Shown here piece by piece: positions 2,535 to 20,108 of a stretch of 41,396 bases of DNA (its first letter is position 1; every line of letters begins with the position of its first letter). The notes beneath the pieces are model-generated. The model was not told the origin of the DNA. It saw only the letters and a program-made list of their open reading frames with translations, and made no database searches. A program made the position numbers and the translations under genes. The stretch lies in the sequence record SRR20825010_911; one strand, written 5' to 3'.

Positions 2535-3009
2535 TTATAGATAACCATTTTTATGGCGTTCTGAGAGGGTGCGTTTACGGAAGTAACTGAACGTTCTTTT
2601 GGTGTAACCATCCACTGCCTCCGATTTTGGGGTCATGGGATAAGTAACGGCAAAACTCTTGTACCAGTTTGCCCTATTTATGTTTACACTTAGGTCCCAG
2701 CTAATACCCTTATATGGATCTGCGGCTGAACAAAGTGACCTTATTTCCTTAAAACAGATGGCTCCTTAGTCAATCTGAGAGTTTCGAAGGTTTAAAAAAC
2801 TTCAGTAAACTTAGTAACTTTAGTTTCTAGGAATCCCTTTCTGAAAATCCACGAAAAACTCTTGAATATTATAGAACTGAAACCTATAAGGTTACCCACT
2901 AGATTTTATAGTACCATCCATACATTTTTTACAACCAATAATACAATTCCTACAAAATACTGAGAATTAAGATATACCTTAATAGTAGCTGTAGGAAAAA
3001 AAACGGCTT

Positions 3010-3372
3010 ATGAAACTTTATAGAATAGTTTTTCCGGCACTCATTCTTTTTGTAATTCCAGTGCAATGGGGCTGTGTAAGTACCCGTATAGAAGCTAGTC
3101 CATATCAGGACAGTGTTGAGAATCTGGAATGTCTTAAAGAATCCAGTTGGAGCTATTACTGGGGCTTAAAGCAAAAACGCATAGATGCCAATCCAGAGGG
3201 AGCTGGTAACGAATGCCCATGTAGGGAAGGTGCCTTATCCTGGGTGGTGGTAAAAACCTCGTTTACCGACTTCCTTCTTAGTGCCGTTACATTAGGAATT
3301 GCGAATCATAGAACGGTTACCTATGGCTGTGCCCGACCACAGCAACCTACCGAACCCAGTTTGGACAATTAA
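3010..3372 (+). CDS. Bor/Iss-like lipoprotein
   Basis: Signal peptide ending QWGC; YYWGLKQKRID...C...KTSFTDFLLSAVTLGI...TVTYGC parallels lambda Bor (FFVSGIGQKKTVD...QTFVNGLLGFITLGI...RVYC). Confidence 0.7.
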   Translation: MKLYRIVFPALILFVIPVQWGCVSTRIEASPYQDSVENLECLKESSWSYYWGLKQKRIDANPEGAGNECPCREGALSWVVVKTSFTDFLLSAVTLGIANHRTVTYGCARPQQPTEPSLDN

Positions 3373-3383
3373 AACAAACCCTT

Positions 3384-4958
3384 ATGACTCCACTAGGAAT
3401 AGACCCACTGCCCATTCAACAATGGACCAATAAGCACGAGAATTTCACTCATAATCTTGTTCCCAATACTTCTTTTAAACTATGGAATCCACCAGGCCAA
3501 AAACATCGCGAACGTTATATGGCAACCACAAAAAATTTTCAATGGCTGATTAACCATGCCATTACCAACAATCTTAAATTACGTGCCATTGGAAGTGGCT
3601 GGTCATTTACAAAAATTGGGGTTACAGAAGGCGGATTAATTGACACGGCAGGCTTGAATTTTTCATTTCCAATTACCCAAAATTATACTAGCCCACATTA
3701 CGCAAGGCAACCGGAAGACCTTTACTTTCTACAATGTGGTGCTATTATCCACGAAGTCAATTCAAGATTGTCGGCGAAAAGCCCGCAAAGGTCAATAAAG
3801 GCATCCGGAGCGAGCAACGGCCAGACCATTGCGGGTGCCCTCTCCACAGGTACTCATGGTGCGGCCATTCGGGTTGGAGCAATTCCCGATTTCGTGGTAG
3901 GGCTCCATTTGATTACAGGTGCAAACAAACACATTTGGCTCGAAAGGGCTAGTTATCCTGTGGCCTCCCAAGAGTTTGTGAATTGGTTGGATGCGGACCT
4001 AGTCCAAGATGATGCACAGTTCAATGCTGCCATTGTCAGTTTTGGTAGTTTCGGTTTCATTCATGGAATCATGATAGAAACAGAACCACAATTTTTGCTT
4101 ACCGAATACCGTGAAGGTCCTATGGCCTATGACAATACCTTAAAAAATGCCATGAAAACAATGGATTTCACTGACCTAAATCTGCCAGGTACGGGACTCA
4201 ATGGGGATATGTACCATTTTGAGGTACTATTCAATATACATGAATTTGAACCGAACAATCCTGCTAAGGGAGCCTTCGTGAAATACATGTTCAAAAAGCC
4301 ATTTCAATTACCCCACATTCCCTTACAGCGTATTAACGATTTCACCTATGGCGATGATCTTTTAGGCATCATTTCTACTGTTTTGGACAAGTTGCCGGGG
4401 TCCGGTCTATTGATTCCGGCAATGGTAAACTTGATGTTCGGACTTGCTTTTAAACCAGAACCTCCTCGCGTAGGAACGATTAGGGAAATGTTCAATTATA
4501 CCAAATTTAGAGGTAAGGTAGCGAGTGCCGCAATGGCAATAGATATACAGGATTCTCCTAAAGCTGTTGAACTCATAGTTGAAGTAAACAAGCAGAAACC
4601 TTTTCCCGGCGGACTTTCCTTGCGCTACGTAAAAGGCACTAAGGCCACTTTGGGTTTCACCAAGTTCCCCAATACATGTGTATTGGAAATGGACGGTGTG
4701 GATGGCCAACCAGCAAGGGATTTCTTCCAAACCGTATGGAATAAATTGGAACTAGAAGGAATTTCGTATACCCTACATTGGGGTAAGATCAATTTTAATT
4801 TAAATGAGGTACGGGTAAAACAAATGTATGGGAACACCTCGGTCCAATCTTGGATAGATGCCCGAAACGAATTGCTCGACACCCCTGCAATGCCTGTATT
4901 TACGAATCAGTTTATTGAGCTATGCGGGTTGGATAAAGTAAATGGGGCGATAGTATAA
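3384..4958 (+). CDS. FAD-binding oxidoreductase, VAO/aldonolactone oxidase (ALO/GULO)-like
   Basis: RAIGSGWSF, QTIAGALSTGTHG, SFGSFGFI and C-terminal HWGK motifs. Confidence 0.85.
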   Translation: MTPLGIDPLPIQQWTNKHENFTHNLVPNTSFKLWNPPGQKHRERYMATTKNFQWLINHAITNNLKLRAIGSGWSFTKIGVTEGGLIDTAGLNFSFPITQNYTSPHYARQPEDLYFLQCGAIIHEVNSRLSAKSPQRSIKASGASNGQTIAGALSTGTHGAAIRVGAIPDFVVGLHLITGANKHIWLERASYPVASQEFVNWLDADLVQDDAQFNAAIVSFGSFGFIHGIMIETEPQFLLTEYREGPMAYDNTLKNAMKTMDFTDLNLPGTGLNGDMYHFEVLFNIHEFEPNNPAKGAFVKYMFKKPFQLPHIPLQRINDFTYGDDLLGIISTVLDKLPGSGLLIPAMVNLMFGLAFKPEPPRVGTIREMFNYTKFRGKVASAAMAIDIQDSPKAVELIVEVNKQKPFPGGLSLRYVKGTKATLGFTKFPNTCVLEMDGVDGQPARDFFQTVWNKLELEGISYTLHWGKINFNLNEVRVKQMYGNTSVQSWIDARNELLDTPAMPVFTNQFIELCGLDKVNGAIV

Positions 4959-5368
4959 AAGCTGGTAGTGCCAGCAGTTTTCTTGCTGACGTAAAGTGAA
5001 ATACCAAAAAAAGCCATTTAGACTAGATTCGCTTTTCCTTTCCGGAGAAACGATTAAATCCTGGACATTTTTATGATGCCCTTTGACTCTCCCTATAAAG
5101 ATTGGGTAATAGGGAAAGAGAGAGGTTAAAACATAACTGAAGTCATAAACCTTTTTTAATATATTTAGTTTTAATCTGGCCCATTAATTCGCAAAAAACT
5201 ACCGTAAGCTTTTTTATATAAATTTATAGTGTACATCCCGTCTAAAGGGTATAAACTAACATCAAATAGTTTGCCCCAACACCAAGAATATTATTGATCT
5301 TAGCCCATCCTTAGGTATTTCAAATCTGTATTTCATTTGTGGGACATAAACCTTCTTATACATTTATA

Positions 5369-5396
5369 ACCCCTCAAGACATCCGTCCTAAGGGGT
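5369..5396 (-). terminator. Stem-loop closing the metacaspase operon
   Basis: Minus strand ACCCCTTAGGAC-GGAT-GTCTTGAGGGGT is a 12-bp stem with two G-U pairs that form only on the minus strand; 15 nt after the stop at 5412; weak U tail. Confidence 0.6.
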
Positions 5397-5411
5397 ATAT
5401 TTTATTACGGG

Positions 5412-7139
5412 TTAAGCGTAGATTCGAACCGAACCACTTTTTAAAGTCAATAAAATGAACGTAGAATCCCCTGGTTCAATTTTTCCTGATGAAGTTAAAT
5501 TTTGCTCCCTTTGAAAACGGGTAATTGCGTTTCGCGTTTTAGAGCCATAAAGTCCATCCTCTACCAAAGGGGTTGTAGGCCCACCTTCTGAAATTGGGAC
5601 TAGGTTTAATTTACTTTGGACCAACAAAACATCATTGTACTTATTCTCTCCTTGGTGACCCACGGAATCGGAGATTTGTATATAACCCTCTTGTTCGCTT
5701 TCTCCCTCAGTGGAACCTGTATTTCCTGGACTGGGGCTAGGACCATTGTCAATATCAACGGTAGCGCCTATCAAATGCATGAAAGGTGCATGCTGACCGG
5801 ACCCGGACATAGCACTTTCCGAGACCATATGATTTTCCCATTCAGTTTCATTGCTACTAGATGTTGTTCCTATTCTTATATATAATCCCTCTGAATTCTT
5901 CAATTGATTCCAAGCATGAACTGGTATAGTAAACCGGCTACTTGTTAACCTATTGCTAACGCTGTTATCATTCCAAGAAAAAAAACTGTTCTGGGCTGTT
6001 CCATTGTCACTCCAGTACGTATAGTCAAACAATTGCTCGTTATTTACTATTTCTATATAGTAATAATTATTGCTTCCCTTTACAACATTAATTACCGGTT
6101 GACCATCATTGATATTCCAACTCGCAGGTGGATTGACCGAAGGATTCTGAGGTGTAGTGGTTGTTCCGGAAGTACCACCGGTAGTGGAGCTACCTGTTGT
6201 AGTACCGGTTCCACCACTAGTGATCGCAATAGGCCAACCAGGAGCATTCACTATAAAGGGTTTGTTTTGGGAAAAAATGGAAATGTTCTTTCCCAGTGTC
6301 ATAAAATTCGGATTTTGGTCTGCCTGGTTCGATGTAACCTTTTGGGCTATATCACTGTGAAACTTATTATGGGTTCCACCAAAGCTCCCGCTATTCCAAG
6401 TTTCTTTCACCTTACTGGTAAATAAACCATTAGTTCCGTAATCATAACTGAATTCATCATCTTGACATCCAGATATAAGTATAATAGACGCAGCAGGTTC
6501 CTGAGATTTCACACCTCTGAACATATTCTGTATTTCTCTATAATGATCTAAGTTTTCGGTATAATTTTTATAACTTATACTTGCCGGCATTAGCTTAATT
6601 TTCTTGCTTACGACTGATTTCGTATCGACGATTGAAAGCACATCTTTGTCAAAATTCTTGACAATCGTACTAAATGTCGATTTTGATTTTTTAAACTTCT
6701 GACTTTGAATAATGCTCTTAAGCATTGTACCACTATTGCAGCTATCTGATAAAACAAAAACCCGTACCCCTTCATTAAAACTGAGCCATAGGTTGTATAG
6801 TTCATCATCTAGAAATTGCCTATCAAAAAAAACCCAGGATTCATCTTGACCATCTGCTTCATCCCCTGTTGAATCCGGTATGGAAGACCCATGACCAGAG
6901 TATGTCAGTAAAAAGATATCTCCGTTTTGTAAGGTTTGGGCGTTTTGACTTATCTGCTCTATAATGTTGGCCGCTGTGGCTTGGTTATTCAAAAGAATGG
7001 TGGGTACGTACCCTTGTTTTTCAGCTATTTTCGATAAATCGTTTGCGTCGTTTACGCAACCCGAAAGTGGAAGTTTGGACCCGTATACTGCTGGGTCAAC
7101 TTCATTTAATCCGATGTGTAATGAAATTGCTCGTGCCAT
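5412..7139 (-). CDS. Metacaspase (peptidase C14) + unknown middle domain + C-terminal peptidoglycan-binding domain
   Basis: LSGCVNDA, YSGHG (His83), DEADGQDE, SDSCNSG (Cys134), ISGCQD, GLFT; G/T/S-rich linker; C-terminal DVLLVQSKLN...EDGLYGSKTRNAITRFQ...SGKIEPG is PG_binding_1-like; no signal peptide. Confidence 0.9.
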   Translation of the reverse strand: MARAISLHIGLNEVDPAVYGSKLPLSGCVNDANDLSKIAEKQGYVPTILLNNQATAANIIEQISQNAQTLQNGDIFLLTYSGHGSSIPDSTGDEADGQDESWVFFDRQFLDDELYNLWLSFNEGVRVFVLSDSCNSGTMLKSIIQSQKFKKSKSTFSTIVKNFDKDVLSIVDTKSVVSKKIKLMPASISYKNYTENLDHYREIQNMFRGVKSQEPAASIILISGCQDDEFSYDYGTNGLFTSKVKETWNSGSFGGTHNKFHSDIAQKVTSNQADQNPNFMTLGKNISIFSQNKPFIVNAPGWPIAITSGGTGTTTGSSTTGGTSGTTTTPQNPSVNPPASWNINDGQPVINVVKGSNNYYYIEIVNNEQLFDYTYWSDNGTAQNSFFSWNDNSVSNRLTSSRFTIPVHAWNQLKNSEGLYIRIGTTSSSNETEWENHMVSESAMSGSGQHAPFMHLIGATVDIDNGPSPSPGNTGSTEGESEQEGYIQISDSVGHQGENKYNDVLLVQSKLNLVPISEGGPTTPLVEDGLYGSKTRNAITRFQREQNLTSSGKIEPGDSTFILLTLKSGSVRIYA

Positions 7140-7150
7140 AATATTTATTA

Positions 7151-9916
7151 TTAAGTTATTTTATTACTTGTTATATTAATTATATTTCCAGTTGTACTAA
7201 AATTGTGATGTATCCAGCCTGACTCATAAGTAGTTCCGTTAGGTGCCCTATATTTTATAAAGTACCCGAAGAGTACACTTGAAACAATCTCGCTAATAGG
7301 TATTAGCAAAACAGATTCTTTTTCCTTTGACCCGTCTGTAAAATCGAGTTTTGTATATGGCGGTTGGTCTTGGATGCCTACATTGACTTCCAATAAATCC
7401 CCGTTTTCTGGACTACTGAACAAATCAAAACATATTATTTGTTGAAATAAATCTTCTATGTAGGCGTAGTTTTCTGATAGTGCCTGTTGATCAGTTTGTA
7501 TAGAGAAAATTGGTATGTAATCCTTGTGGTCAAGATCATGCCCTAAAATGTATGTTTCACCCGGAGCCACATTTTGCTGAACCGGTATTTCCTCTTCTCC
7601 CCCTTGTTCAATTTTTGCCAATCGATCAACATGAACGATACTTTCCAACTCATTGGTTATGTGAAGAGCTCCAGTAATATGTTCAATTCTTATACCCTCT
7701 CCAGACCAGGGTTGCGCAATAGAATCCAGGGTAACGACCATCTGCGTACTAAATACTTCCTCAGCATCTAGTTTCTTTTTGTAAATTCCTGTAATACCGC
7801 CACGCTCAAGCATTGATTTGCATAGTTGAGCATCCATAATATTGGTTTCCAAGGTGGCATGGATCGAATGTTCGAAGGTGAAGGTATTTGCTTTTTCAAT
7901 TACAGAATTGGATAGGTTCCAATTGATCGATTCTTCCCCGACCAATTCCGTGATATAGGTTATCTGTGCAGGATAGGCGGTAAAGTTGCTTAACCCCCTT
8001 TCTAGTTCTATCCTTTCATAATAGGTTATATTGGGCTGTAATTTTAAATCAACTACGCAACGACTGTCGGCTAAATTTTCTATATCCACCACCCCATGTA
8101 AAAATAGTTCAGGCGCAAATTTCTCTGGTGCCTCCAAACTTCTCGCTATTACATAGCTTTTAGGAACAACCACAAACATTTGTGGCATTACCTGTGATTT
8201 ATAAACCTCATACTTGGCATGATCCAACTCAATTATTTTCCTATAGAGCGGGGTTTTTATAATACCTAATCGCATGGGCTCGCTACAACCAATAGCTATC
8301 TTACTATCGTTTTTAAGTTCTGCAAAATAATCGCCATAAGAGTTACATTGAACCGTCAAATCCAACTTATGGGATATATTAATTGATTGTCTCACATATT
8401 CTTTCTTTTTTAATCGATCAATTGCTGCGGTGTTCCAATTAATATTGGAAACAGCCACCAATGAAGGGATATGAGCGGTAAGTACTGCGTTATTATTTGC
8501 CATAGCAAGAGATGGTTTCGGCAAACTGCGAATGGCTTTTTTTGAACTACTATCCTTTGGGGAGGCAAATCTTTTATTGCTGTTGTTTAATTTATTTAGA
8601 TTGGCCAACTGCACGGAATTGCCTAATTGCAGACCGCTTACCAAATAAGAAACATTGTCTCTTTTTCTTTGCATTGCATTGAAATAATAGCTTAAAATCA
8701 AAGTTGGTCTTGATGCTGGCGGCAATGAAGGTGTTGACAAAGCTCCGTATAGCAATCTGACCCAGTCATTGGAAACAGAAAATTTAAGTTTGACATGGTC
8801 CTTGTCCCTCTCCACTGTTGAGGCTTCCAAATAGGTTTGCTTTTGATTCCCTGCTGCATCCATGTAAGGTAGTTGAATACGATATAAAGGGTTTAAAATA
8901 TTGAGTAAACGGGTTTTCGTCTTTTCCCCTAAGGATGCGACCCAAGTTTTGTTTAAAAATTGCCTAAGGGTCACTACTAAATCTGCTTCCAGTGCGGGAG
9001 ACCCATCAGCCAAAATGCCAATATTTTTAATGGTAAATTGAAATGGTGCCGATTCAAATGACATACCATTGTTGGGTAGCAGTAATTCAAGGTCCGGTTT
9101 TACCCAATAGAGGTCTTTCTGTACATAATCTACCCAATAGTTATCATTCGTGCTATCCACTTTGGGTAGCATTGTTAGAAGGCTTGTATCAAAATAGGGA
9201 AGAATTGAAAATATAGGTCGGTTGAAATTTGGCCGAACCAACGAACTGGATACTAATGAATTGGATATATTGCTAGCTAGGTTAAACCTATCTTTTTTGG
9301 GGCTTGTCAAGTCTTGGTACAAAATAATCTGCTCATAAGCATTGGACTTTTTATTATCCAAGAAGATTTTTGGAGTAAACCTTAAAAGTCGTGTTTCTTC
9401 ATTTCCTATAAAGTAGTACTGAGTAGCTTTATCCAGAACCTGTTTAATTTTAAAAAAAATTGGTTCTTGTGCTGAAAAATCAACACTTTTCTTTTCCCAT
9501 ACATCGTAACATCGAAATTCATAGGAAAAAATAAGATCCTCATTACGAGCGTCATCAGGGTTAATGAATTTTTGGATTAAATCTTTATTGGGAGACAAAT
9601 TAAATTGAATGGTGTTCAACAAACCGCTAACTGCCTTTTCGGCCAACAAACCCTTGGAATCCAGAATTGACATCTTACCAGATTGAACAAAAGGCAATTT
9701 GACTTTACGCGATTCTTTAAAAAGGAACTTGATGACCATCTTGGCCATTACTATATTATCACCTGTAATATTCCCTTGAGAGTCTTGTACAATGATATCC
9801 AATTTACTTGTTGAGCCATCCTTATCAAACGTGAAAGAAAAAGGATATACCTTTCCCACGCCCAAGGACCTTACTACTTGGGTTTTTCTTTTATTTTGTT
9901 TGATATTGAACAACAT
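7151..9916 (-). CDS. Large hypothetical protein (921 aa), divergent internal repeats
   Basis: Long ORF in operon arrangement, 11 nt from the metacaspase start; no family recognised; no signal peptide or TM helix. Confidence 0.85.
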   Translation of the reverse strand: MLFNIKQNKRKTQVVRSLGVGKVYPFSFTFDKDGSTSKLDIIVQDSQGNITGDNIVMAKMVIKFLFKESRKVKLPFVQSGKMSILDSKGLLAEKAVSGLLNTIQFNLSPNKDLIQKFINPDDARNEDLIFSYEFRCYDVWEKKSVDFSAQEPIFFKIKQVLDKATQYYFIGNEETRLLRFTPKIFLDNKKSNAYEQIILYQDLTSPKKDRFNLASNISNSLVSSSLVRPNFNRPIFSILPYFDTSLLTMLPKVDSTNDNYWVDYVQKDLYWVKPDLELLLPNNGMSFESAPFQFTIKNIGILADGSPALEADLVVTLRQFLNKTWVASLGEKTKTRLLNILNPLYRIQLPYMDAAGNQKQTYLEASTVERDKDHVKLKFSVSNDWVRLLYGALSTPSLPPASRPTLILSYYFNAMQRKRDNVSYLVSGLQLGNSVQLANLNKLNNSNKRFASPKDSSSKKAIRSLPKPSLAMANNNAVLTAHIPSLVAVSNINWNTAAIDRLKKKEYVRQSINISHKLDLTVQCNSYGDYFAELKNDSKIAIGCSEPMRLGIIKTPLYRKIIELDHAKYEVYKSQVMPQMFVVVPKSYVIARSLEAPEKFAPELFLHGVVDIENLADSRCVVDLKLQPNITYYERIELERGLSNFTAYPAQITYITELVGEESINWNLSNSVIEKANTFTFEHSIHATLETNIMDAQLCKSMLERGGITGIYKKKLDAEEVFSTQMVVTLDSIAQPWSGEGIRIEHITGALHITNELESIVHVDRLAKIEQGGEEEIPVQQNVAPGETYILGHDLDHKDYIPIFSIQTDQQALSENYAYIEDLFQQIICFDLFSSPENGDLLEVNVGIQDQPPYTKLDFTDGSKEKESVLLIPISEIVSSVLFGYFIKYRAPNGTTYESGWIHHNFSTTGNIINITSNKIT

Positions 9917-9933
9917 TATTTACATTTTATTTA

Positions 9934-9973
9934 TTGCTGGAATCGGTATCCAATGAGGCACCGATCCCAGCAA
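9934..9973 (-). promoter_or_regulatory. Intercistronic stem-loop
   Basis: Minus strand TTGCTGGGATCGGT-12 nt-ACCGATTCCAGCAA is a 14-bp stem with one G-U pair and no U tract, lying between the 770-aa and 921-aa genes. Confidence 0.65.
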
Positions 9974-10012
9974 ATAATTTTTGTTATTTATTAACTATAG
10001 TAAATACACCTT

Positions 10013-12325
10013 CTATTGCGGTGGCATAACAGATGAGCGCTTATTTCTGCTTCTAGGTACTCTTCTAATTGCACCAACTGAGAACATCCCATTTGATTGA
10101 AGTTCCAGTACAGGCTCTTTTTCGGATATAGATCTTGTAGGAGGGAAAGAAACAGGAGGCCTGTAATCCGCCTCTGGCTCCAATCTTTCCGGAATAGTAT
10201 AAGTCCTTGCCACTACTACTCCTTCATCTTCTGGCGTTGGTACCGATACAATTAACGGTCCACTTCCAGCACTCCTTTTCCAAGGTCCTGTCCATTCCAT
10301 ACCTTTGGTGAAGATACTCCCCTGAACCACCACTCTTACTTGGTACTTATAATATGAATGTACCCCCTTGTCCGAGGTAAAGACCGACCAGTATCTGCCT
10401 TCCTGTTGGGTATCAAAATCGAATCTGAACTTTACGGGATCAAATCTGACATTACCTCTGGCATCTTTAATTTCCTCTCCATCCTCATCCGTTGCCTGAA
10501 AGGTAACTTCAACAAATTGCTGTGCATTCTCTAAAAAAACATTCAGGTTAATAGGTCCCACTTTAACCCTACCCGCTTCATCGGCGCGTACCTCCAAAAT
10601 GATGTCATTGCTCAAAGAACCATTTTCACCCGGGTCCAGATCTATCTCGTTATCTTCAATCTGAACCCTTGTATTTGGAAATTCAAATGGATCGGGCGGT
10701 TCCAGCATACTCACTTTACGTTTCACGTAGGTCAAATCAGCTTTCCAGCCGTCAGGTTTGTTTTCCACATGTTCCTCCAACTTTTGGGTAACGGCACATT
10801 CCCATGTCCTATCCGGATTATCTGTCGCTAAAAATGGTGGAATGGAACCTGTCCACATAATATCTCCACTTGTATTGGGGTATCCGATCTGTACACTCAT
10901 ATGGGATATTGGTTCACCTACCCAATTTTGCGCCAACTTTGGCCAGTTACAAACAGGCTTAACGATCCGTGCTAATTTTCGTGGCCAATCATCCAGATAC
11001 AATGTTTGGAAATAATGCGGTTCTTTCTCTGGATGCAATTCCAATTCTTCTGCCATGCCCTCAAGGGAACTACTTATCATATGTTCTTGAATGTATGATA
11101 TCTGACGTGTCTCGTGGTAGTACAAACTAAGGTTCGTAGAATCTCTTCTATATTTTAGAGCAACACCTGCACCTCCCAATCCAAGGAATCCACCACCGCC
11201 TGAAGCTTCCGCAGCCTCGACATCAGGTTGGGGTGGGTCGAAAATTACCGTTTTCGCCTGCTCCATAAATTTCTCAAGTATCATATCGGTGCGTTCGGTA
11301 ATTTGCTCTGCCACTTGCTCGGGGTTAGGAATCATGGCATTGTTAATTTTAACGTCAACGTCTATCGTTCCGTTCATTCGCATATTGTTCAATTCGGCCT
11401 TAACATCCGCTGAAAACCACAAATATCTACCCTTTGCATGCGCAGAGAAATGATCAAATATTCGCTCCCATTGACCCGTTATGGTTATTTCAAAAGCGGG
11501 TATCCAAAATGGCATTTTTATATTCATCGCTACATTTATAGGGGAATATGACCCATGAAATGCCGCCCATAATATACTTGCGGGGTATGATCCCACCAAT
11601 GCTGTAAAGGCGTTTTGCCCCATTGGATCAATACTTCCAGTGCCCGCGCCTTGCATATTCCAATACCAAGGCTCAATGTTCCGGGCAGATTTGGTTCTAC
11701 CATAATTGCGTGCACTAAAGCCCTTGCGACTTATAAATGAAGGAACAGATACTTTTCTATACGCCAAGGGTTTACTGCTTCTTGGGGCCGGACCACCAGG
11801 AATAACAGGTTCTTCAGTAACTGGATCCACAGGCTCAACCACACTCCCATCCTCAGCTGGAGACAGATTGGTTACACTTGTTTGATTATCTATTATCGCC
11901 ACAGGTCTGAAAATGGGAGTGACATTATTTCCTATCCCCCAAAAATAATCCTGTTTCCCTTTAAATTGCCTAATAATCTGACTTTGCGAATCCTCAAGTA
12001 CATGATTCGGAGGTGCGCTATTTACCGTAAAGCCCAACACTCCACCTGCCACCTCCTGGGTACCATCTTCTTCAGTTACTCCTATATTGGCATCGGAAGA
12101 CTGAATTCCAGCAAACCTGATCAGATTAAACATCAAAGGGTTCTCATCTCGTCCATCTTTCCTTGTAAGATGTACATAATTTGGTAGCCAATAAAACACT
12201 GGCGCTATACCAGCTTTTTGTAGCTCATAGTTATTCGCATCCGGATAATAGAGTAGTTCATATCCGTTGGAAACTATAGGTTGTCTGCCTCCCGCTAGGG
12301 TAGGTCCAATTGCGTTCATTGCCAT
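10013..12325 (-). CDS. Large hypothetical protein (770 aa)
   Basis: Long ORF with A-rich upstream region typical of Bacteroidota starts; Pro/acidic then Arg/Lys-rich loop, Gly-rich segment and beta-rich C-terminal domains; no signal peptide. Confidence 0.85.
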   Translation of the reverse strand: MAMNAIGPTLAGGRQPIVSNGYELLYYPDANNYELQKAGIAPVFYWLPNYVHLTRKDGRDENPLMFNLIRFAGIQSSDANIGVTEEDGTQEVAGGVLGFTVNSAPPNHVLEDSQSQIIRQFKGKQDYFWGIGNNVTPIFRPVAIIDNQTSVTNLSPAEDGSVVEPVDPVTEEPVIPGGPAPRSSKPLAYRKVSVPSFISRKGFSARNYGRTKSARNIEPWYWNMQGAGTGSIDPMGQNAFTALVGSYPASILWAAFHGSYSPINVAMNIKMPFWIPAFEITITGQWERIFDHFSAHAKGRYLWFSADVKAELNNMRMNGTIDVDVKINNAMIPNPEQVAEQITERTDMILEKFMEQAKTVIFDPPQPDVEAAEASGGGGFLGLGGAGVALKYRRDSTNLSLYYHETRQISYIQEHMISSSLEGMAEELELHPEKEPHYFQTLYLDDWPRKLARIVKPVCNWPKLAQNWVGEPISHMSVQIGYPNTSGDIMWTGSIPPFLATDNPDRTWECAVTQKLEEHVENKPDGWKADLTYVKRKVSMLEPPDPFEFPNTRVQIEDNEIDLDPGENGSLSNDIILEVRADEAGRVKVGPINLNVFLENAQQFVEVTFQATDEDGEEIKDARGNVRFDPVKFRFDFDTQQEGRYWSVFTSDKGVHSYYKYQVRVVVQGSIFTKGMEWTGPWKRSAGSGPLIVSVPTPEDEGVVVARTYTIPERLEPEADYRPPVSFPPTRSISEKEPVLELQSNGMFSVGAIRRVPRSRNKRSSVMPPQ

Positions 12326-12942
12326 AATTTTAATTTTTAAAGTTGCTAATTAATCCTTTTTGTAATCCTATTGCTCTGCTCCGCACATTTAGGTGCTGCT
12401 ACTTTTACAAGTTATTATTAAACGTATATCATCTATCTTTGGTCAGGTCACCATTGCCATTAATTTGAATATCTCTGCCCATTTTCAACAAAAACGGAAG
12501 AGAAGAAAATAACTACAATGATCGTGAGGTAGCAGGAATCCTCCCTAGTTACCAATGTTTTAGAACTTGGGCCACTATTCTTCCCTAATTCTACAAAACC
12601 ACTATTTCCGAGATATGACAACCCACGTTCCAACTACATCTTTTTTATCGCTTTTCAATACAATAAGGTTTTCATTACGCCTTGTTTCCGTCCCGAAAAT
12701 CTTATAAAACCTGCCCTTGACCCGACATTTCCCCGAACCTACTTTTAGGTATTATATTTTACATTTAATAAAATCTCACTAGGAGTTTTATCAATATTTA
12801 TTATTAAATGAGATAGTTAAACGGTTTATTCCGTAAACTTTTAATTAAGGGAGGAAAAATATGATTACACCTAACTATTTATGTTAGATGCCCTTTGGTC
12901 ACCCGAGTTTTCGGGACATGCACTGAACCAAGCAATATGAGA

Positions 12943-12991
12943 CTAAGATGAGAAACTCTAACCTTTAAAACAATCCCCATAAATGGGGATT
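12943..12991 (-). promoter_or_regulatory. 20-bp palindromic operator overlapping a putative Bacteroidota promoter
   Basis: AATCCCCAT-AA-ATGGGGATT (12972-12991); on the minus strand a TTG (-33, 12971-12973), 20-nt spacer and CATCTTAG (-7-like, 12943-12950). Confidence 0.55.
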
Positions 12992-13035
12992 TTTACAGTA
13001 AGCCGCTAAATATTAACCAAATAAGCCACCTACAA

Positions 13036-13725
13036 TCAAATAAATGCTGCAGCTTTTTTAACCAAATGTGCCGTATTCTTTACTTGAAATTTTTCAATCA
13101 AATTTTTGCGATGTGAGATGGCTGTATGACTGCTTATAAAAAGCATATTCGCTATTTCTTTAGAGGAAAAACCATTGGCTATAAGGCGCAGTACCTCTTG
13201 TTCCCTTGCGGAAATACATCCTAGTTCCTTTTTTGATGTTCCTTGTTCCTCCAAATTGTAAGAAAGCTCAAGGCAATGTTCTATTCGTTCCTTGTCAGAG
13301 ATATCCATCAGGTAATTAAACGCTAACGTCTGCCATTTTGTTCGGTGCAAGAAAATCTCATGCTCAAGGTAGATTTTTTTACCTGTTAAATTCGTAATAT
13401 GATAATACGTGGTAAGAGTTTGTTCCGAATGAAGACTCTCAAATAAACTACGAATTTGAGCCCAAAAAACAGGCACCTCCTCTGCATCTATTCTAGATAG
13501 CCAAAAACCCCAGCCTTCCTCCCATAAATTTTTAGAACATTCTCCAAAACTATTTATTAGATTTCGGTTACAATATAAAAAATTGCCCTTCTCAATCAGG
13601 TAAACAAACACCATCAAATTTTCTGAACGCTCACAAACCTCCAAGATTTTGCAAATTTCATTAGACAGTATTTTCCTACAAAAATCATAAGGATTCAAGC
13701 AGTCCTTAATATTAGTTAAATTCAT
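13036..13725 (-). CDS. LuxR-family transcriptional regulator with N-terminal PAS-like domain
   Basis: C-terminal ISAREQEVLRLIANGFSSKEIANMLFISSHTAISHRKNLIEKF HTH; N-terminal FVYLIEKGNFLYCN...FWLSRI...YHITNLTGKKIYL is PAS-like; no receiver motif. Confidence 0.9.
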   Translation of the reverse strand: MNLTNIKDCLNPYDFCRKILSNEICKILEVCERSENLMVFVYLIEKGNFLYCNRNLINSFGECSKNLWEEGWGFWLSRIDAEEVPVFWAQIRSLFESLHSEQTLTTYYHITNLTGKKIYLEHEIFLHRTKWQTLAFNYLMDISDKERIEHCLELSYNLEEQGTSKKELGCISAREQEVLRLIANGFSSKEIANMLFISSHTAISHRKNLIEKFQVKNTAHLVKKAAAFI

Positions 13726-14275
13726 GATTATGGGGTATTTACATAAAAGATACGATAAAACTAGAAGTAAGTAGTCTAGAACTGTATCGCTGGTAAGAAT
13801 TTATGTACAAATAACATTTTCCACCTAATACAAACGATCCCTCTAGGCCTCATTGGAAATTTAACTTCTTACATAAAGTTAACTTATGCAAGAAGTGTAT
13901 GAAATGAAAAATTGAAATTTACTTATCAAAAACGCCCTAAGGCAGTTATTACAATCTAACACCTTCCACATTGAACCCATTACAGCTCACAAATAATTTA
14001 AATAAGTCCATTATTTGCTCCAGCGAATTTACACACATGTCTCCAAGATTTTTGAACCCATATAATCAAAGCCAAGAGTTACATATTCCATGGGCAAAAA
14101 ATGCACAAGCTCCGAAAACCACAATTTACAAGCCATTTGACCGACAGGTCATAGACCTACCAACTCCAATTCTCAAACCCATTTCCTTAAGACATTATTA
14201 ACAATTAAGATTTTGTTAATACAGTAATACCGCTAAAAAAAGTATTTTAGGGAAAACCTAAATATAACCCTACCA

Positions 14276-15706
14276 TTGCAGACTAAAAGCACTTTCCTAA
14301 GATTAAAAACACAACTCAATCTAATAGGTGTTCAAAAAACCTTTGCATTTTGTTTTTTGATCTTTGTTCTGCTCTTCTTTGGCTGTTCCCCTAAATTTTC
14401 AAATTTAGCGTTACCTATAGATGACTTAAAGGAATTCTCTTATAGTGGCCCAAGTATCTTGGAAGACAAATGGTGGACCGCCTTCAACGATGAGCAACTT
14501 AATATTCTCATCGATTCCGCATTACAGTCCAACTTGGATCTTGCCGCTACATGGCAGCAATTTTTGGCTTCAAGAGCCATAGTAGCGCGTGAAGCCGGGG
14601 ATAAATGGCCGCAAATTGCAGCTAGCGCACAATCGGCCATAAATTTACCTGAACCCGATTTTGTGGGTGGGGAAAATACTCAATTGGGCCTTTCCGCCAA
14701 TTACGAACTAGATTTATGGGGCAGGATACGAAGTTCGGTACAGGCAGAAAAATTTAGGTCCGAAGCCAGTTTGTACGATTACCGAACTGCAGCTATATCC
14801 CTTTCTGCTGAAATTGCAACCACTTGGTACCAATTAATAGCGGCAAAAAAACAACTTCAAATTACAAAAGACCAAATATCTACAAACGAGGATATAATTA
14901 AACTTATAAGAACGAGGTTTGTTGGCGGTCAGATTAGGGCAGTGGACATTCTGAGACAGGCGCAGTTATTGGAAAGTACCAAAGAGCAGCAGATTATTTT
15001 TGAAACCAATGTAGCCCTTTTGGAAAATCAATTGGCGGTATTAATGGGCAAACAGCCTCAAATAAACGTTACTTTTGAAACCACCGATCTACCTACATTG
15101 CCAGAACTACCAGAGGCAGGTATGCCTCTGGAACTCATCAGGCGTAGACCGGACATACAACAATCCTACGCCGTATTGTTAGCAGCCGATAGGGATATGG
15201 CGTCGGCAGTGCGCAGTAAATATCCTAGATTATCAGTAAGTGCCAGGGGACAACTGCGATCCAATAGTTTTCAAAATCTGTTTGACAATTGGGCCTATAC
15301 CTTAGCCGGAAACATATTGGCTCCCTTATTCTATGGCGGACAGCTTAGTGCTGAAGTGGACAGGACCCAGGCCATTAAGCAACAAAGACTTTTGGAATAC
15401 GGACAGACCACTTTGGAGGCCTTTCAAGAGGTGGAAAATGGCTTGATTCAGGAAATAAAACAAAAGCAAAGGGTAGTCAATATTGGCAGACAATTGGAAT
15501 TGGCACAAAAAAGCAACAGGCAACTGCGGGTAGAATTCCTTAACGGATTTAGCCCCTACTTGGATGTACTTATAGGTTTGGATGCCGAACAACAACTCCG
15601 TAGGGATTACATAGTGTCCCAACGGCAATTAATTCTAATACGAATTGCACTGTACAGAGCATTGGCTGGCGGATTTGAAACCGAAAGAGAGATCGACAAT
15701 CAATAG
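14276..15706 (+). CDS. RND efflux outer membrane factor (TolC/OprM/NodT family lipoprotein)
   Basis: LLFFGC lipobox, WWTAFNDEQLN, YELDLWGRIR, LIRRRPDI, AFQEVENGL, LYRALAGG; exact start uncertain. Confidence 0.92.
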   Translation: MQTKSTFLRLKTQLNLIGVQKTFAFCFLIFVLLFFGCSPKFSNLALPIDDLKEFSYSGPSILEDKWWTAFNDEQLNILIDSALQSNLDLAATWQQFLASRAIVAREAGDKWPQIAASAQSAINLPEPDFVGGENTQLGLSANYELDLWGRIRSSVQAEKFRSEASLYDYRTAAISLSAEIATTWYQLIAAKKQLQITKDQISTNEDIIKLIRTRFVGGQIRAVDILRQAQLLESTKEQQIIFETNVALLENQLAVLMGKQPQINVTFETTDLPTLPELPEAGMPLELIRRRPDIQQSYAVLLAADRDMASAVRSKYPRLSVSARGQLRSNSFQNLFDNWAYTLAGNILAPLFYGGQLSAEVDRTQAIKQQRLLEYGQTTLEAFQEVENGLIQEIKQKQRVVNIGRQLELAQKSNRQLRVEFLNGFSPYLDVLIGLDAEQQLRRDYIVSQRQLILIRIALYRALAGGFETEREIDNQ

Positions 15707-15718
15707 AAAATAAAATTT

Positions 15719-16927
15719 ATGAGCAATAAAAAAATACTGTGGATATGTTTGGCAATACTCATTGCCGGGATTGCTATTACCACCCTTATATTTTCTACGG
15801 AACCGGAAGCAAAGACCGAAGGGGCAAGCATAGAAACTGCTATGTTAGTGGATGTGATTACCGTAAAAGTAGGTTCCTATGAACCCACCATATCAGCAAC
15901 GGGCACAGTGCAACCGGTGGAGGATATTACCTTAAGTCCGTTGGTATCCGGACAGATAATAAATAGGGATCCAGCTTTTACGCCCGGGGGATTCGTAAAA
16001 AAGAATCAACCGCTACTCCAAATAGACCCCTCGGATTATAGGAACACCCTGGAACTTAGAAAGAGCGAACTACTACAGTCCAAGACTACCTTGGATACCG
16101 AAATGGGCAGACAGCAAATAGCGGAACAAGATTTAATGCTAATAACCAACGATTCCCTTTTTAAAGACAATCCGCTATCCGCAGATGAGAGACAACTAAT
16201 ATTACGGCAGCCCCAGCTAAATGCCGTTAAGGCTACCATTGTTGGTGCCAAGGCCTCTGTGGACCAAGCGCAATTAAACTTGGAAAGAACTACTATTCGT
16301 GCTCCTTTTGATGCGCATATTCTTAGCCAGAACGTCACAGCTGGTTCCCAAGTTGGTCCAGGGGATGACTTAGGTAGGCTCGTTGGCACAGAGTATTACT
16401 GGGTTACAGCAACCGTACCGGTTTCCAAACTACAATGGCTTCACTTTCCCGAAAATGATAAAGACAGGGGTTCCGAAGTACTTATCAAGAATTCTACGGC
16501 CTGGCCCGAAGAGCAGTATCGGGAAGGTTATCTGGACAAAGAAATTGGTGCCTTGGACGGGCAGACCCGCCTGGCTAGGGTGCTGGTAAAAGTGGCAGAT
16601 CCACTTGCTAAAAATACCGATTTAGAAGGGAAGCCCAAATTAATGATAGGCACCTTTGTTGAAGTGGATATTCAGGCCAATAAATTGGACAATGTAGTTC
16701 GCCTAAGCAGGGATTATATTAGAAGTAACGAAACGGTCTGGGTGATGAAAGAGGGCAAATTGGAAATTCGTGAGGTTGATATCGTTCTCACAGATAATGA
16801 CTACGCCTACATCCGTAAGGGATTAGAAGAGGGAGAACAGATTGTTATCACAGATTTAAGTACCGTAAGCAATGGTATTGGACTAAGAACAAGGTCTGAA
16901 GGCTCCGAAAAAGAACCGACACAATAA
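15719..16927 (+). CDS. RND efflux periplasmic adaptor (membrane fusion protein)
   Basis: N-terminal TM anchor, ATGTVQP, VSGQI, LLQIDPSDY, LERTTIRAPFDA. Confidence 0.92.
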   Translation: MSNKKILWICLAILIAGIAITTLIFSTEPEAKTEGASIETAMLVDVITVKVGSYEPTISATGTVQPVEDITLSPLVSGQIINRDPAFTPGGFVKKNQPLLQIDPSDYRNTLELRKSELLQSKTTLDTEMGRQQIAEQDLMLITNDSLFKDNPLSADERQLILRQPQLNAVKATIVGAKASVDQAQLNLERTTIRAPFDAHILSQNVTAGSQVGPGDDLGRLVGTEYYWVTATVPVSKLQWLHFPENDKDRGSEVLIKNSTAWPEEQYREGYLDKEIGALDGQTRLARVLVKVADPLAKNTDLEGKPKLMIGTFVEVDIQANKLDNVVRLSRDYIRSNETVWVMKEGKLEIREVDIVLTDNDYAYIRKGLEEGEQIVITDLSTVSNGIGLRTRSEGSEKEPTQ

Positions 16928-16934
16928 ATAGACC

Positions 16935-19900
16935 ATGGACAAAAAGGAAAAGAAAGAAAATAAAACTCCTAGGAAAGAAGGTGCTATTGCCTATATGGCC
17001 AAAAACTCCATTGCCACCAACCTACTTATGTTAGTGCTTCTCGGCGGTGGAATATTTACCATGTTCAAAATACAAAAGGAGGTATTTCCGGAATTTCAGT
17101 TAGATTTTGTTGAAGTTTCAGTGGCCTATCCAGGTGCCTCCCCGGCAGAGGTAGAACAAGGTATTCTGCAACCCGTAGAGGAAGCCGTTAGGGCAGTTCA
17201 GGGAATCAAGGAAATTGCTTCCGAAGCCAATGAAGGCTCGGGACAGATTCTTATAGAACTTGTTGCGGGATCGGAACGCATGAAAGCCTTCCAAGATATT
17301 GATCAGGCCATCAATCGCATACGTACCTTTCCCGATGATATTGAACAGCCCATTGTAAGTCTACAATCCCGTCAACGGGATGTACTTCAAATTGGATTAT
17401 ATGGCAAGGCAGATATATGGACCTTGCGCCAATTGGCCGAACGCCTGCGCAATATCCTTCTCAGCAATCCCAAGATTACACAAGTGGAACTTGGAAATGT
17501 TCCCGATTATGAAACCAGGATCGAGATACCCCGCCACAACCTACAAAAATACAACCTGACCCTTGGACAGGTAGCGGACATAATTCAACAAAGCAGTAAT
17601 GACGTACCTGCCGGGGCTGTACAGACTCAAAGCGGAGAAATATTGCTTCGAATGCAGGAGCGGAAACAATGGGCCAAGGAATTTGGAAATATTACTGTGA
17701 TTTCCTCTGACTCTGGCGCCAAAGTAACCTTGGATGATATTGCCACCATAACCGATGGTTTTGAGGAAACCGGATTTCACGGACAATTCAATCAAGAAAA
17801 CTATGTAGAACTTCGCATTTTCCGAATTGGGAACCAGTCTCCTCTAGAGATTGCCGATGCCGTTGAGGGCATCATGGAAGATTTCCAACTGCCGCCTGGA
17901 ATCAAATATCGTACGGATAGCAATCGCGCTGCAGATTATAGGGAACGGCTATCACTACTGACAGAAAATGGAATTCTCGCCATTATCATTGTGCTGATTA
18001 TACTGACCCTATTTTTGGAGTATCGCCTAGCCTTCTGGGTAATGATGGGCATGACCGTTTCCTTTGTGGGCGGAATGATATTCCTACCACTCATCGGTAT
18101 CAGCGTAAATATGATTTCCATGTTCGGATTTTTGGTAGTGCTTGGTATTGTAGTAGATGATGCCATTGTGGTGGGTGAAAATGTCTATGAATACCGTCAG
18201 AAGGGATTTAGCCCCATTAAGGCCGCCATTGCGGGGACCAAAGATGTTTCCTTGCCGGTGGTCTTTAGCATTGTAACAACCATTATAGCTTTTGTACCCC
18301 TCTTGTTTATGCCCGGTGAAACTGGAAAATTCTGGCAGCCCTTACCTGCGGTTGTGATCGTTATTTTAGGCGTTTCACTACTTGAAGCACTATTTATTTT
18401 ACCATCCCATTTGGCTCATCTAAATAAGGAAACAAATAAGAACAAATGGGTTAAAAAGCTGGAAGGCTGGCAGCGCACTTTTGCCAATGCATTTGACCGT
18501 TTTATAGAAAATAAATATCGCCCGCTATTGGACAAATGTTTACAATACAGATATATTACCCTAACTGCTGCCGTTGCACTATTGCTTATTGTGGGAGGCT
18601 ATGGCTATAGTGGGCATATGGGACTGATTATGATGCCAGAAGTTGCGGCCGATGAAATAGAAGCTGGGGTTCGCTTACCGGTGGGCACAACCCCGGATCA
18701 GGCGGCCAAAGTAGCACATGCTATCTCCAACTCCACCCAACGCATGTTCGAGGAACACAATCTTTATGAAGTAGCGGAAGGAATAAAGACCAATGTTCGT
18801 GGGCAGAATTTTATAGACGTTGAAATCGTGATGTTGCCACCAGACCAACGCGATATTACAGCTGCCGAGATCATTGCCCTATGGCGCGATAATATTGGAG
18901 ACATTGAAGGGGTAGACCAAATTACCTTTGAGGCGGAAAGAGGCCCTGGTGGCGCAAGGCAGGCCATAAGCATAGACCTCAGCCATTCGGATATAAATGT
19001 GTTGGAAAAAGCTAGTGGTGCTTTTGTGGAAAGGATGAAAGCTTTTTCCAATACGCGTGATGTCACGGACAACTACAATAAGGGAAAAATGCAGTTCGAC
19101 TTTAAGCTATTGCCACAAGGCAGAAGCCTTGGACTCACTTCGGACGAGGTAGGGCGCCAGGTGCGCGATGGTTTCTTTGGAGCTTTGGCAATGAGACAGC
19201 TGCGGGGAATGAACGAAATTGAAGTACGGGTAAAACTACCGATTGATGAGCGTAAGGATATTCAAAACTTGGAAAATTTCTTGATCCGTACTCCAGGGGG
19301 GATAGAAGTTCCGTTGATGGATGTAGTGGAAGTGGAGCAAAGGGAAGCCTTTAGCAGTATCAATCGCAGGGACGGACGCAGAATAGTGAATGTTGGTATG
19401 GACGTTGAACCCGCCAATGCAGTTACCAGGGTCATCAATATGGTGCAGGAAGAAACACTACCACAATTACGTGCCGATTTTCCTGGAATCACTTGGAGCT
19501 TTGAAGGTAGTCAGGCAGATATGAGGGAAAGCACCAACACCCTTAGGGCAGGCTTCGCCATTGCCATGGGCTTAATATATGTATTGCTGGCCATAGCCTT
19601 TCACAGTTATGCGCAACCCTTAATTGTAATGACCGCCATTCCATTTGGTATAGTAGGTGCCGTTATAGGCCACATCTTACTTGGCTATGACCTCTCATTG
19701 GTAAGTTTAATGGGCGTTATAGCATTATCGGGAGTGGTAGTCAATGATTCTTTGATCATGATAGACTATGCCAACAAACGGCGGAAGGAAGGCAACCCCA
19801 TATACACTTCCATACACGAAGCAGGCCTTAGAAGATTTAGGCCCATTATGCTAACAACCATGACCACCTTTGGAGGTTTGGCCCCTATAATCCTTGAAAC

Positions 19901-20108
19901 TTCGAGTCAGGCCTATTATTTAATCCCTATGGCAATTTCTTTGGGATTCGGTATCGTATTTGCCACTGCCATCATTTTGGTCATTGTGCCCTGCTTATAT
20001 TTAACACTAGAGGATATACGGCTGATGATGGAAAAAGGTAGAACGGTAAGGCAAATGGATGTATCCAAAACCAAAGCCCCAGAAAACAGTGTACTAGTGG
20101 ATAAATAA
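16935..20108 (+). CDS. RND efflux permease (AcrB/AcrD/AcrF family)
   Basis: 1057 aa with multiple TM segments; [39 protein letters not shown]. Confidence 0.95.

Follow-up and report, generated by a model that had tools for sequence, protein, structure and literature searches.

What do two large proteins of no named family do beside a caspase-like protease that carries a wall-binding end? The question is raised by four minus-strand open reading frames (ORFs) of the same orientation at positions 5412–13725 of sequence record SRR20825010_911, whose whole analysed stretch of 41,396 nucleotides (nt) is called the window here. They encode a LuxR/GerE-type regulator (13036–13725, minus strand; 229 amino acids, aa), protein A (10013–12325, minus strand; 770 aa), protein B (7151–9916, minus strand; 921 aa) and protein C (5412–7139, minus strand; 575 aa). 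Gaps are 710 nt between the regulator gene and A, 96 nt between A and B, and 11 nt between B and C. An earlier note on this DNA had described four co-oriented genes with 96-nt and 11-nt gaps, and both the ORF coordinates and these gaps were reproduced.

The cassette core consists of three genes, A, B and C, 6.9 kb in size. A-B-C is a real, conserved, undescribed cassette, most likely self-contained and horizontally moving. The reading preferred here, with a probability of roughly 35%, is that of a protease-linked autolysis or programmed-cell-death module, which would open the cell that expresses it and might thereby serve phage defence, altruistic release or development.

Conservation and distribution of the cassette

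The gene order A-B-C is fixed across several phyla. A scan of metagenome contigs, queried with an alignment of A, yielded 77 loci; an earlier scan of genome contigs with a single protein had given three loci only. ORFs came from a simple caller of our own; A, B and MID (a domain of C, described below) were assigned by profile, and protease domains by BLAST. A is present in 73 of the 77 metagenome loci. Where 600 nt or more of sequence continue downstream of A (54 loci), B is one of the next two ORFs on the same strand in 52. Of 36 loci in which B is complete and followed by 600 nt or more, 30 have a protease or MID gene after B. A-B-C is among the more rigid gene orders seen for accessory cassettes. 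On a megaplasmid of Deinococcus taeanensis the trio appears as a hypothetical protein, a second hypothetical protein and a 'caspase family protein', behind a BTAD regulator. No fourth gene that might confer immunity is conserved among the neighbour clusters of the loci.

The cassette occurs in Bacteroidota, Actinomycetota, Chloroflexota, Deinococcota and Planctomycetota, phyla with single and with double membranes. Its spread is sporadic: one of 401 sampled Bacteroidota genomes and none of 50,697 phage records contained A. In the window, the trio shares an accessory island of 11.6 kb (2554–14173) with the regulator, a 120-aa ORF and a 524-aa FAD_binding_4 protein. The parts on either side (1–2553 and 14174–20000) match the nearest genome, G001, at 94–98% identity, and in G001 the island is replaced by 147 nt. 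Neither flanking direct repeats nor att-like sites were found at the island borders.

Properties of protein C

Modular protease without a signal peptide. The N-terminus leads straight into a Peptidase_C14 (metacaspase-type) domain at residues 20–280 (6300–7082, minus strand; PF00656, E 3.6e-19, 69.8 bits against a cutoff of 21.4). MID follows at residues 326–475 (5715–6164, minus strand) and PG_binding_1 at residues 502–554 (5478–5636, minus strand; 27.5 bits against a cutoff of 23). Low-complexity linkers rich in Ser, Thr, Gly and Pro are present. The two Pfam matches agree with the earlier description of a metacaspase with a peptidoglycan-binding domain; by Pfam, the wall-binding domain is present in C of the window and a hydrolase domain is absent. 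Among PHROGs, endolysins are matched by the PG_binding_1 part alone. In PADLOC-DB 2.0, C matches a generic 'caspase' model only (E 3.6e-10). The catalytic residues H83 and C134 are invariant in all 16 C14-type relatives, and so are the motifs SGHG, SDSC(H/N)SG and SGCQD; DSC(H/N)SG and SGCQD resemble motifs of metacaspases, proteases that cleave after Arg or Lys.

MID is a new domain or repeat of about 115 aa, common to all protease types of the cassette and present in one to three copies per protein. S8-type relatives match C of the window only within residues ~325–475, that is, in MID, both by BLAST and by profile. The MID profile recovered 536 representatives at E ≤ 0.001 among 1.84 billion proteins; 59 MID proteins, all of at least 469 aa, were picked from the best 150 of these. 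To judge from these sequences, MID seems almost confined to proteases of the cassette-C kind. Profile comparison gave no relationship of MID to A, to B or to any PDB sequence, and MID has no family in Pfam, NCBIfam, PADLOC or PHROGs.

Both ends of C vary around MID. The proteases of 29 C proteins are of type C14 (16) or S8 subtilase (13); their wall domains are PG_binding_1 (10), M15_3 (6), PG_binding_3 (2) and GH25 (1), and the remaining 10 have no recognisable wall domain. In the 59 sampled MID proteins the proteases are S8 (36), C14 (16), and astacin, C70 and M10 (matrixin) with one each, and the wall-hydrolase domains are M15_3 (7), M23 (3), M15_2 (3) and GH25 (1). The sequence SxHxxGxAxD, which we take to be the motif of M15, is intact in four of the six M15_3 carriers. 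The plan of C is therefore given as an endoprotease of any class, one to three MID, and a peptidoglycan-binding or peptidoglycan-cleaving domain. The earlier note had expected homologues to co-occur with a C14 protease: the co-occurrence holds at the loci counted above, but the partner is not always C14, S8 being about as common. Two loci hold a caspase-type gene plus a subtilase-type gene. In a quick tree of 27 A proteins, from which protease swaps were counted, the protease label needs at least three changes, and the window belongs to an all-caspase clade of 11.

Three of the 59 MID proteins (S8-type, P0134 included) carry an IF2_N-like domain (PF04760) ahead of the subtilase domain. Small stand-alone proteins with one MID were seen after the main C gene at L052:20151–20852, L046:12734–13696 and L072:10607–11530. 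In an Arenibacter metagenome-assembled genome (MAG) the C gene (L003:3967–5694) is present as two ORFs of 254 and 296 aa, 96–98% identical to C of the window; the split is a frameshift or an assembly error.

Properties of proteins A and B

Protein A is the strongly conserved core protein. Homologues at E ≤ 0.001 number 305 among 8000 candidates scored; the best 120 of these share 45–94% identity across at least 90% of the length, and all are annotated as 'hypothetical'. Sources include Tenacibaculum, Cytophagales, Chitinophagaceae, Caldilinea, Deinococcus, Phycisphaerales, Amycolatopsis and Allorhizocola. Mean column identity of the family alignment is 46%; identity across phyla is 45–60%. The AlphaFold2 (AF2) model of A, of moderate confidence (predicted local distance difference test, pLDDT, 72), begins with an N-terminal domain, from which a disordered basic linker (173–218) leads to a middle part with very long strands (264–301, 304–326, 385–420) around a long helix (335–362) and with a conserved Gly-rich loop; two beta-sandwiches (449–706) and a disordered tail come last.

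Protein B is fast-evolving, and for that reason gave only nine matches in a word-index search. Identity in its alignment is 16–22% outside close kin. Residues C524 and C544 are invariant in the family alignment. The AF2 model (pLDDT 72, moderate confidence) is a string of beta-sandwiches, disordered at 187–246 and 421–500.

A and B are, at the level of sequence profiles, remote paralogues in their N-terminal parts only. The two family profiles align with an hhalign probability of 94% (E 1.3e-7; A columns 24–412 against B columns 43–308), the B profile matches A proteins at E 1e-4 to 4e-6, and the families merge in single-linkage BLAST clustering. B of the window has a shortened version of the N-terminal part homologous to A. 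The word 'paralogous' in the earlier note can thus be kept for the N-terminal parts and at profile level; A and B of the window compared directly by BLASTP give a best E of 0.14.

Neither A nor B has a match in Pfam (E ≤ 0.1), NCBIfam, PADLOC or PHROGs. Family profiles of A, B and MID searched against PDB sequences gave no relative and a single match, at E 0.16. Foldseek and VIA-align comparisons of A and B, made with whole-protein models, gave generic beta-sandwiches only, with no gasdermin or MACPF/CDC fold among the rows. Matches in the ESM Atlas were solely unnamed clusters annotated 'hypothetical protein', their recognition values being low (978 and 963). The two large proteins are therefore without a named family, as the earlier note had stated, and the likeness to CDC-like or gasdermin pores that it had drawn finds no sequence or fold support in A or B. 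Its undescribed protease-linked system stands: absence of a protease beside the homologues, or a match to a characterised unrelated family, had been set beforehand as counting against it, and a protease co-occurs while neither large protein matches a characterised family.

No signal-like N-terminus and no hydrophobic stretch of transmembrane (TM) grade was found in 29 C, 44 A and 40 B proteins. No type IX secretion system (T9SS) sorting domain is among the Pfam matches of the C proteins. A, B and C have no N-terminal cysteine. The lack of a signal peptide and of a T9SS domain, already remarked on for the window, is thus confirmed.

Regulator and nucleic acid signals

The regulator has a GerE/LuxR helix-turn-helix (PF00196, E 2.7e-15) at residues 172–224. 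Residues 1–165 match zero Pfam families even at E ≤ 10; PAS domains are divergent, and this part was judged by Pfam sequence profiles only. Of the label 'PAS-LuxR' given earlier, the LuxR/GerE half is retained and the PAS half is without Pfam support. A terminator-like hairpin follows the gene (12969–12994, minus strand; 12-nt arms, 92% complementary, then a U run) and is kept in the Arenibacter MAG copy (L001), with which alone the regulator of the window clusters among the neighbour genes of cassette loci. The largest neighbour cluster after the cassette genes is a LuxR-type protein, at six loci. The regulator gene of the window, with a terminator hairpin of its own and a distance of 710 nt to A, is a separate, lineage-specific transcription unit outside the operon, and its inclusion in the system by the earlier note is not followed here.

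The 710-nt leader is poorly kept in the relative with a 95%-identical A; what is conserved there is the terminator and ~35 nt before the start codon. Upstream of A stand a 17-nt palindrome, 71% AT-rich (12325–12352), and a 10-nt inverted repeat (12762–12771 / 12801–12810). Promoter-like sites are at shuffle level (31 found against 28.4 expected). The 'palindromic operator' proposed at this place reduces to a weak AT-rich palindrome, no better than chance. The only small hydrophobic ORF upstream of A (12460–12633) was considered as a holin and rejected, since this region lacks conservation in L001.

The 96-nt gap between A and B contains a stem-loop (9929–9978, minus strand; 19-nt arms, 84% complementary). 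The gap folds at -30.3 kcal/mol (z -5.66), which is equalled by 0 of 200 shuffles. Structured A-B gaps (z ≤ -3.8) occur at 11 of 20 loci with a gap of at least 25 nt, four of these being close relatives. The stem-loop is possibly an attenuator or a site of mRNA processing. After C, a hairpin (5369–5396, minus strand; -22.2 kcal/mol, z -2.63) is likely the operon end, and the terminal hairpin of the earlier note is recovered in it. Rfam gave across the island a single sub-threshold match (SurA, 20 bits against a gathering score of 100). There is no RNA dataset among the 22 sequencing runs listed for the cassette.

Proposed function

Lack of an export signal in a wall-binding or wall-cleaving enzyme is a hallmark of holin-dependent endolysins. 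The module of lysis or cell death is favoured because the signal-less wall enzyme recalls such endolysins and the neighbouring, swappable protease recalls gasdermin operons. On induction, here perhaps via the neighbouring LuxR-type regulator, C would dock onto A or B through MID and would cleave both proteins within the long, basic and disordered linkers. The cytoplasmic membrane would then be breached by A, present in excess and perhaps with B as the seed, so that C, which is wall-directed and signal-less, could reach the wall. Such a cassette would follow the logic of holin-endolysin or gasdermin-caspase pairs with parts unrelated to theirs. Pore formation, cleavage, membrane action and lysis are what we infer from the anatomy, which alone is observed.

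Several observations are in favour of this module: the synteny of the metagenome loci and the same trio on the Deinococcus megaplasmid, the swapping of protease and wall end in C, the intact catalytic dyad of the C14-type proteins together with the absence of signals and TM segments in A, B and C, and the sporadic, island-borne spread. The linker of A and the linker of B at 421–500 are variable and basic across lineages. Precedents are the bacterial gasdermins beside protease genes and the metacaspases fused to peptidoglycan-binding or amidase domains, both compared below. Two weaker points are the lack of a conserved immunity-like gene and the strong stem-loop after A, which fits production of A in excess.

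Other observations weigh against it. C of the window binds the wall only and has no hydrolase, so that lysis would need another activity. The Lys plus Arg content of the linkers is alike in caspase-type and subtilase-type loci (A, 0.118 and 0.099; B, 0.134 and 0.111), hence there is no co-variation of substrate and protease. A and B have no likeness to any pore former in the sequence and fold searches. The Ser/Thr/Gly/Pro-rich linkers of C and the two invariant cysteines of B would also fit extracellular proteins. A defence-island signal was not seen either: 111 neighbouring genes from 20 long loci (at most four ORFs of at least 110 aa per side) are mostly housekeeping and regulatory, with functions in signalling, transport and metabolism, and in PADLOC (E ≤ 1e-10) each listed family matched one neighbour, mostly by kinase-type models. 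Known defence genes are thus not visibly frequent in this sample, for which there is no baseline for comparison, and the role in defence that had been among the earlier suggestions gains nothing from it.

A bolder form of the proposal is offered tentatively and is rather doubtful. A and B would represent a novel class of membrane-breaching proteins, large, soluble and gated by a protease, with no relation to gasdermins, MACPF/CDC or holins; their pore or lesion would admit a signal-less protease-lysin of 60–130 kDa to the wall. The cassette would be a cellular, non-phage counterpart of holin-endolysin pairs, horizontally spread in at least five phyla, and MID would be the adaptor that plugs in any protease.

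Comparison with known systems

In holin-endolysin systems, a modular, signal-less wall enzyme is let through the membrane by a partner. C is likewise modular, signal-less and wall-directed, and its peptidoglycan-binding end matches endolysin PHROGs. Unlike these systems, the cassette has no small membrane protein and no TM-grade segment in A, B or C, the constant catalytic part of C is a protease, and phage records lack A. As a signal-less muralytic enzyme, C is comparable through relatives that carry M15_3, M23 or GH25, the protein of the window having a binding domain only. Two-component CDC-like toxins of Bacteroidota consist of two proteins and are activated by a protease. Two proteins and protease activation are shared with the cassette as an idea only; A and B, compared as whole-protein models, have no MACPF/CDC signal in sequence or fold, and the cassette is not confined to Bacteroidota.

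In a study of bacterial gasdermins, 43 of 50 adjoin protease genes, with C14 (n=15) and CHAT (n=23) among them (Johnson et al., bioRxiv 10.1101/2021.06.07.447441). In common with the cassette, the gasdermin operons described there have a non-enzymatic effector gene with a dedicated protease as its neighbour, proteases of varying class (C14, CHAT, subtilase) and a sporadic spread, and cell death by proteolytic release is proposed. Unlike gasdermins, A (770 aa) and B (921 aa) give no gasdermin match by Pfam, PADLOC or fold rows. The cassette has two large partners and not one, its protease has MID and wall domains and not the TPR, LRR, WD40 or NACHT domains reported in that study, and an N-terminal cysteine is lacking in A, B and C.

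The architecture of C14 plus a peptidoglycan-binding domain was catalogued in 2012, with 11 sequences (1.6%), and the same survey connected metacaspase-amidase fusions with autolysis and programmed cell death (Asplund-Samuelsson et al., PMC3501461). The passages of that work on peptidoglycan deal with single proteins and contain no mention of the A-B-C cassette, MID or the subtilase swap. Lysostaphin, zoocin A and archaeal Woldo are secreted modular peptidoglycan-hydrolase weapons, and the archaeal Woldo and Danwoldo have Tat signal peptides and act alone (PMC12352652). The cassette has in common with these weapons a binding and a lytic domain and a patchy, plasmid-biased distribution, but C is signal-less and tied to A and B in one operon. 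Full-text literature searches, with supplements outside their scope, gave no description of the A-B-C cassette.

Alternative explanations

The first of the competing explanations is an antibacterial weapon, in which C would lyse the walls of other cells and A and B would carry, aim or translocate C, with release by lysis of a few cells or by some export route. C does resemble the modular wall-hydrolase weapons with a binding and a catalytic domain (PMC12352652); its relatives have M23, M15 and GH25 catalytic ends typical of lysins, B evolves fast in the manner of a receptor-binding part, the two invariant cysteines of B and the low-complexity Ser/Thr/Gly linkers of C suit such a role, and regulators of many kinds are nearby. 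The A, B and C proteins examined, however, have no Sec, Tat or T9SS signal, no conserved small neighbour gene is a candidate for immunity, and the cassette is found in single- and double-membrane phyla with no export apparatus alongside. A weapon is held to be unlikely.

A non-lethal role in the envelope or in cell structure is still less likely. A and B would form a scaffold, intracellular or wall-associated, for example in a developmental or stress state, and C would mature it and tether it to peptidoglycan. The conservation of A across phyla is unusual for a conflict protein, A and B are both arrays of beta-sandwiches, the neighbours are housekeeping and signalling genes and not defence genes, and attenuator-like stem-loops such as those after A stand behind major structural subunits. 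Against this, the spread is patchy and island-like (the single sampled Bacteroidota genome, the absence from the nearest genome), the free swapping of unrelated proteases and wall hydrolases is typical of effectors, and with no export signal the wall is out of reach from the cytoplasm.

Improbable, too, is an immune sensor, in which the wall end of C would recognise cytoplasmic peptidoglycan fragments, produced by phage lysins or by damage to the wall, and would activate the protease on A and B. It would explain wall-recognising domains within a cytoplasmic, signal-less protease, and domains that vary yet are always wall-specific. The zinc motif of M15 looks intact in most M15_3 carriers, which favours real enzymes; about a third of the C proteins have no recognisable wall domain; and the neighbour sample, itself without a baseline, provides no defence-island context.

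That A and B belong, as highly diverged members, to one of the known pore-former superfamilies (MACPF/CDC, gasdermin, aerolysin-like), as the analogy in the earlier note implies, is very improbable, for although the AF2 model of A has very long paired strands and a helix in its middle, the fold rows are tied with many unrelated beta-sandwiches and include no such fold from Foldseek or VIA-align, and neither Pfam at the cutoff used nor the PDB searched by family profiles gave a match.

Variant loci and neighbouring genes

At three of the six loci where B is not followed by a protease or MID gene (L035:15670–16542, L036:6639–8579, L049:8373–10160), a related convergent gene of 290–646 aa replaces the protease; the copies of L036 and L049 match no Pfam family. 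A fourth gene of 835–836 aa stands directly after a subtilase-type C at L048:19547–22054, L050:10681–13191 and L065:8895–11405, and its L050 copy has no Pfam family. The one positive Bacteroidota genome holds a variant locus, L007 (G002:C10:66000–85999), where A-like genes for 679 and 658 aa stand in tandem, together with a gene for 174 aa and a member of the B family (901 aa, profile E 9.4e-20); ORFs are at 12127–14166, 10101–12077 and 6892–9597. A MID or protease gene was not detected in L007 with the family profiles.

Positions 3010–4958 (plus strand) of the window, in the island, encode the 120-aa ORF, without a family, and the 524-aa FAD_binding_4 protein; both accompany the trio in the Arenibacter MAG (L003) and at no other locus. 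An ordinary RND (resistance-nodulation-division) efflux operon (14276–20108, plus strand; OEP, HlyD-type and AcrB-type proteins) abuts the island and is conserved in G001. A 771-aa ORF without a Pfam family (21172–23487, minus strand) adjoins a class A penicillin-binding protein (23551–25971). Near-identical DNA of the cassette (5412–12325; at least half of the sampled words) is present in six runs from five studies, mostly marine or seawater metagenomes; one of the six runs may be the source of the window itself.

Biological meaning

A, B and MID comprise hundreds of members across five phyla, without a name, a fold assignment or a located paper. Should the cassette kill or lyse cells, it would be a new executioner of bacterial programmed death and also a new route for wall enzymes across the membrane. 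If it is a weapon instead, it points to an unknown route of export or delivery. Either way, C is a natural library of protease-lysin fusions.

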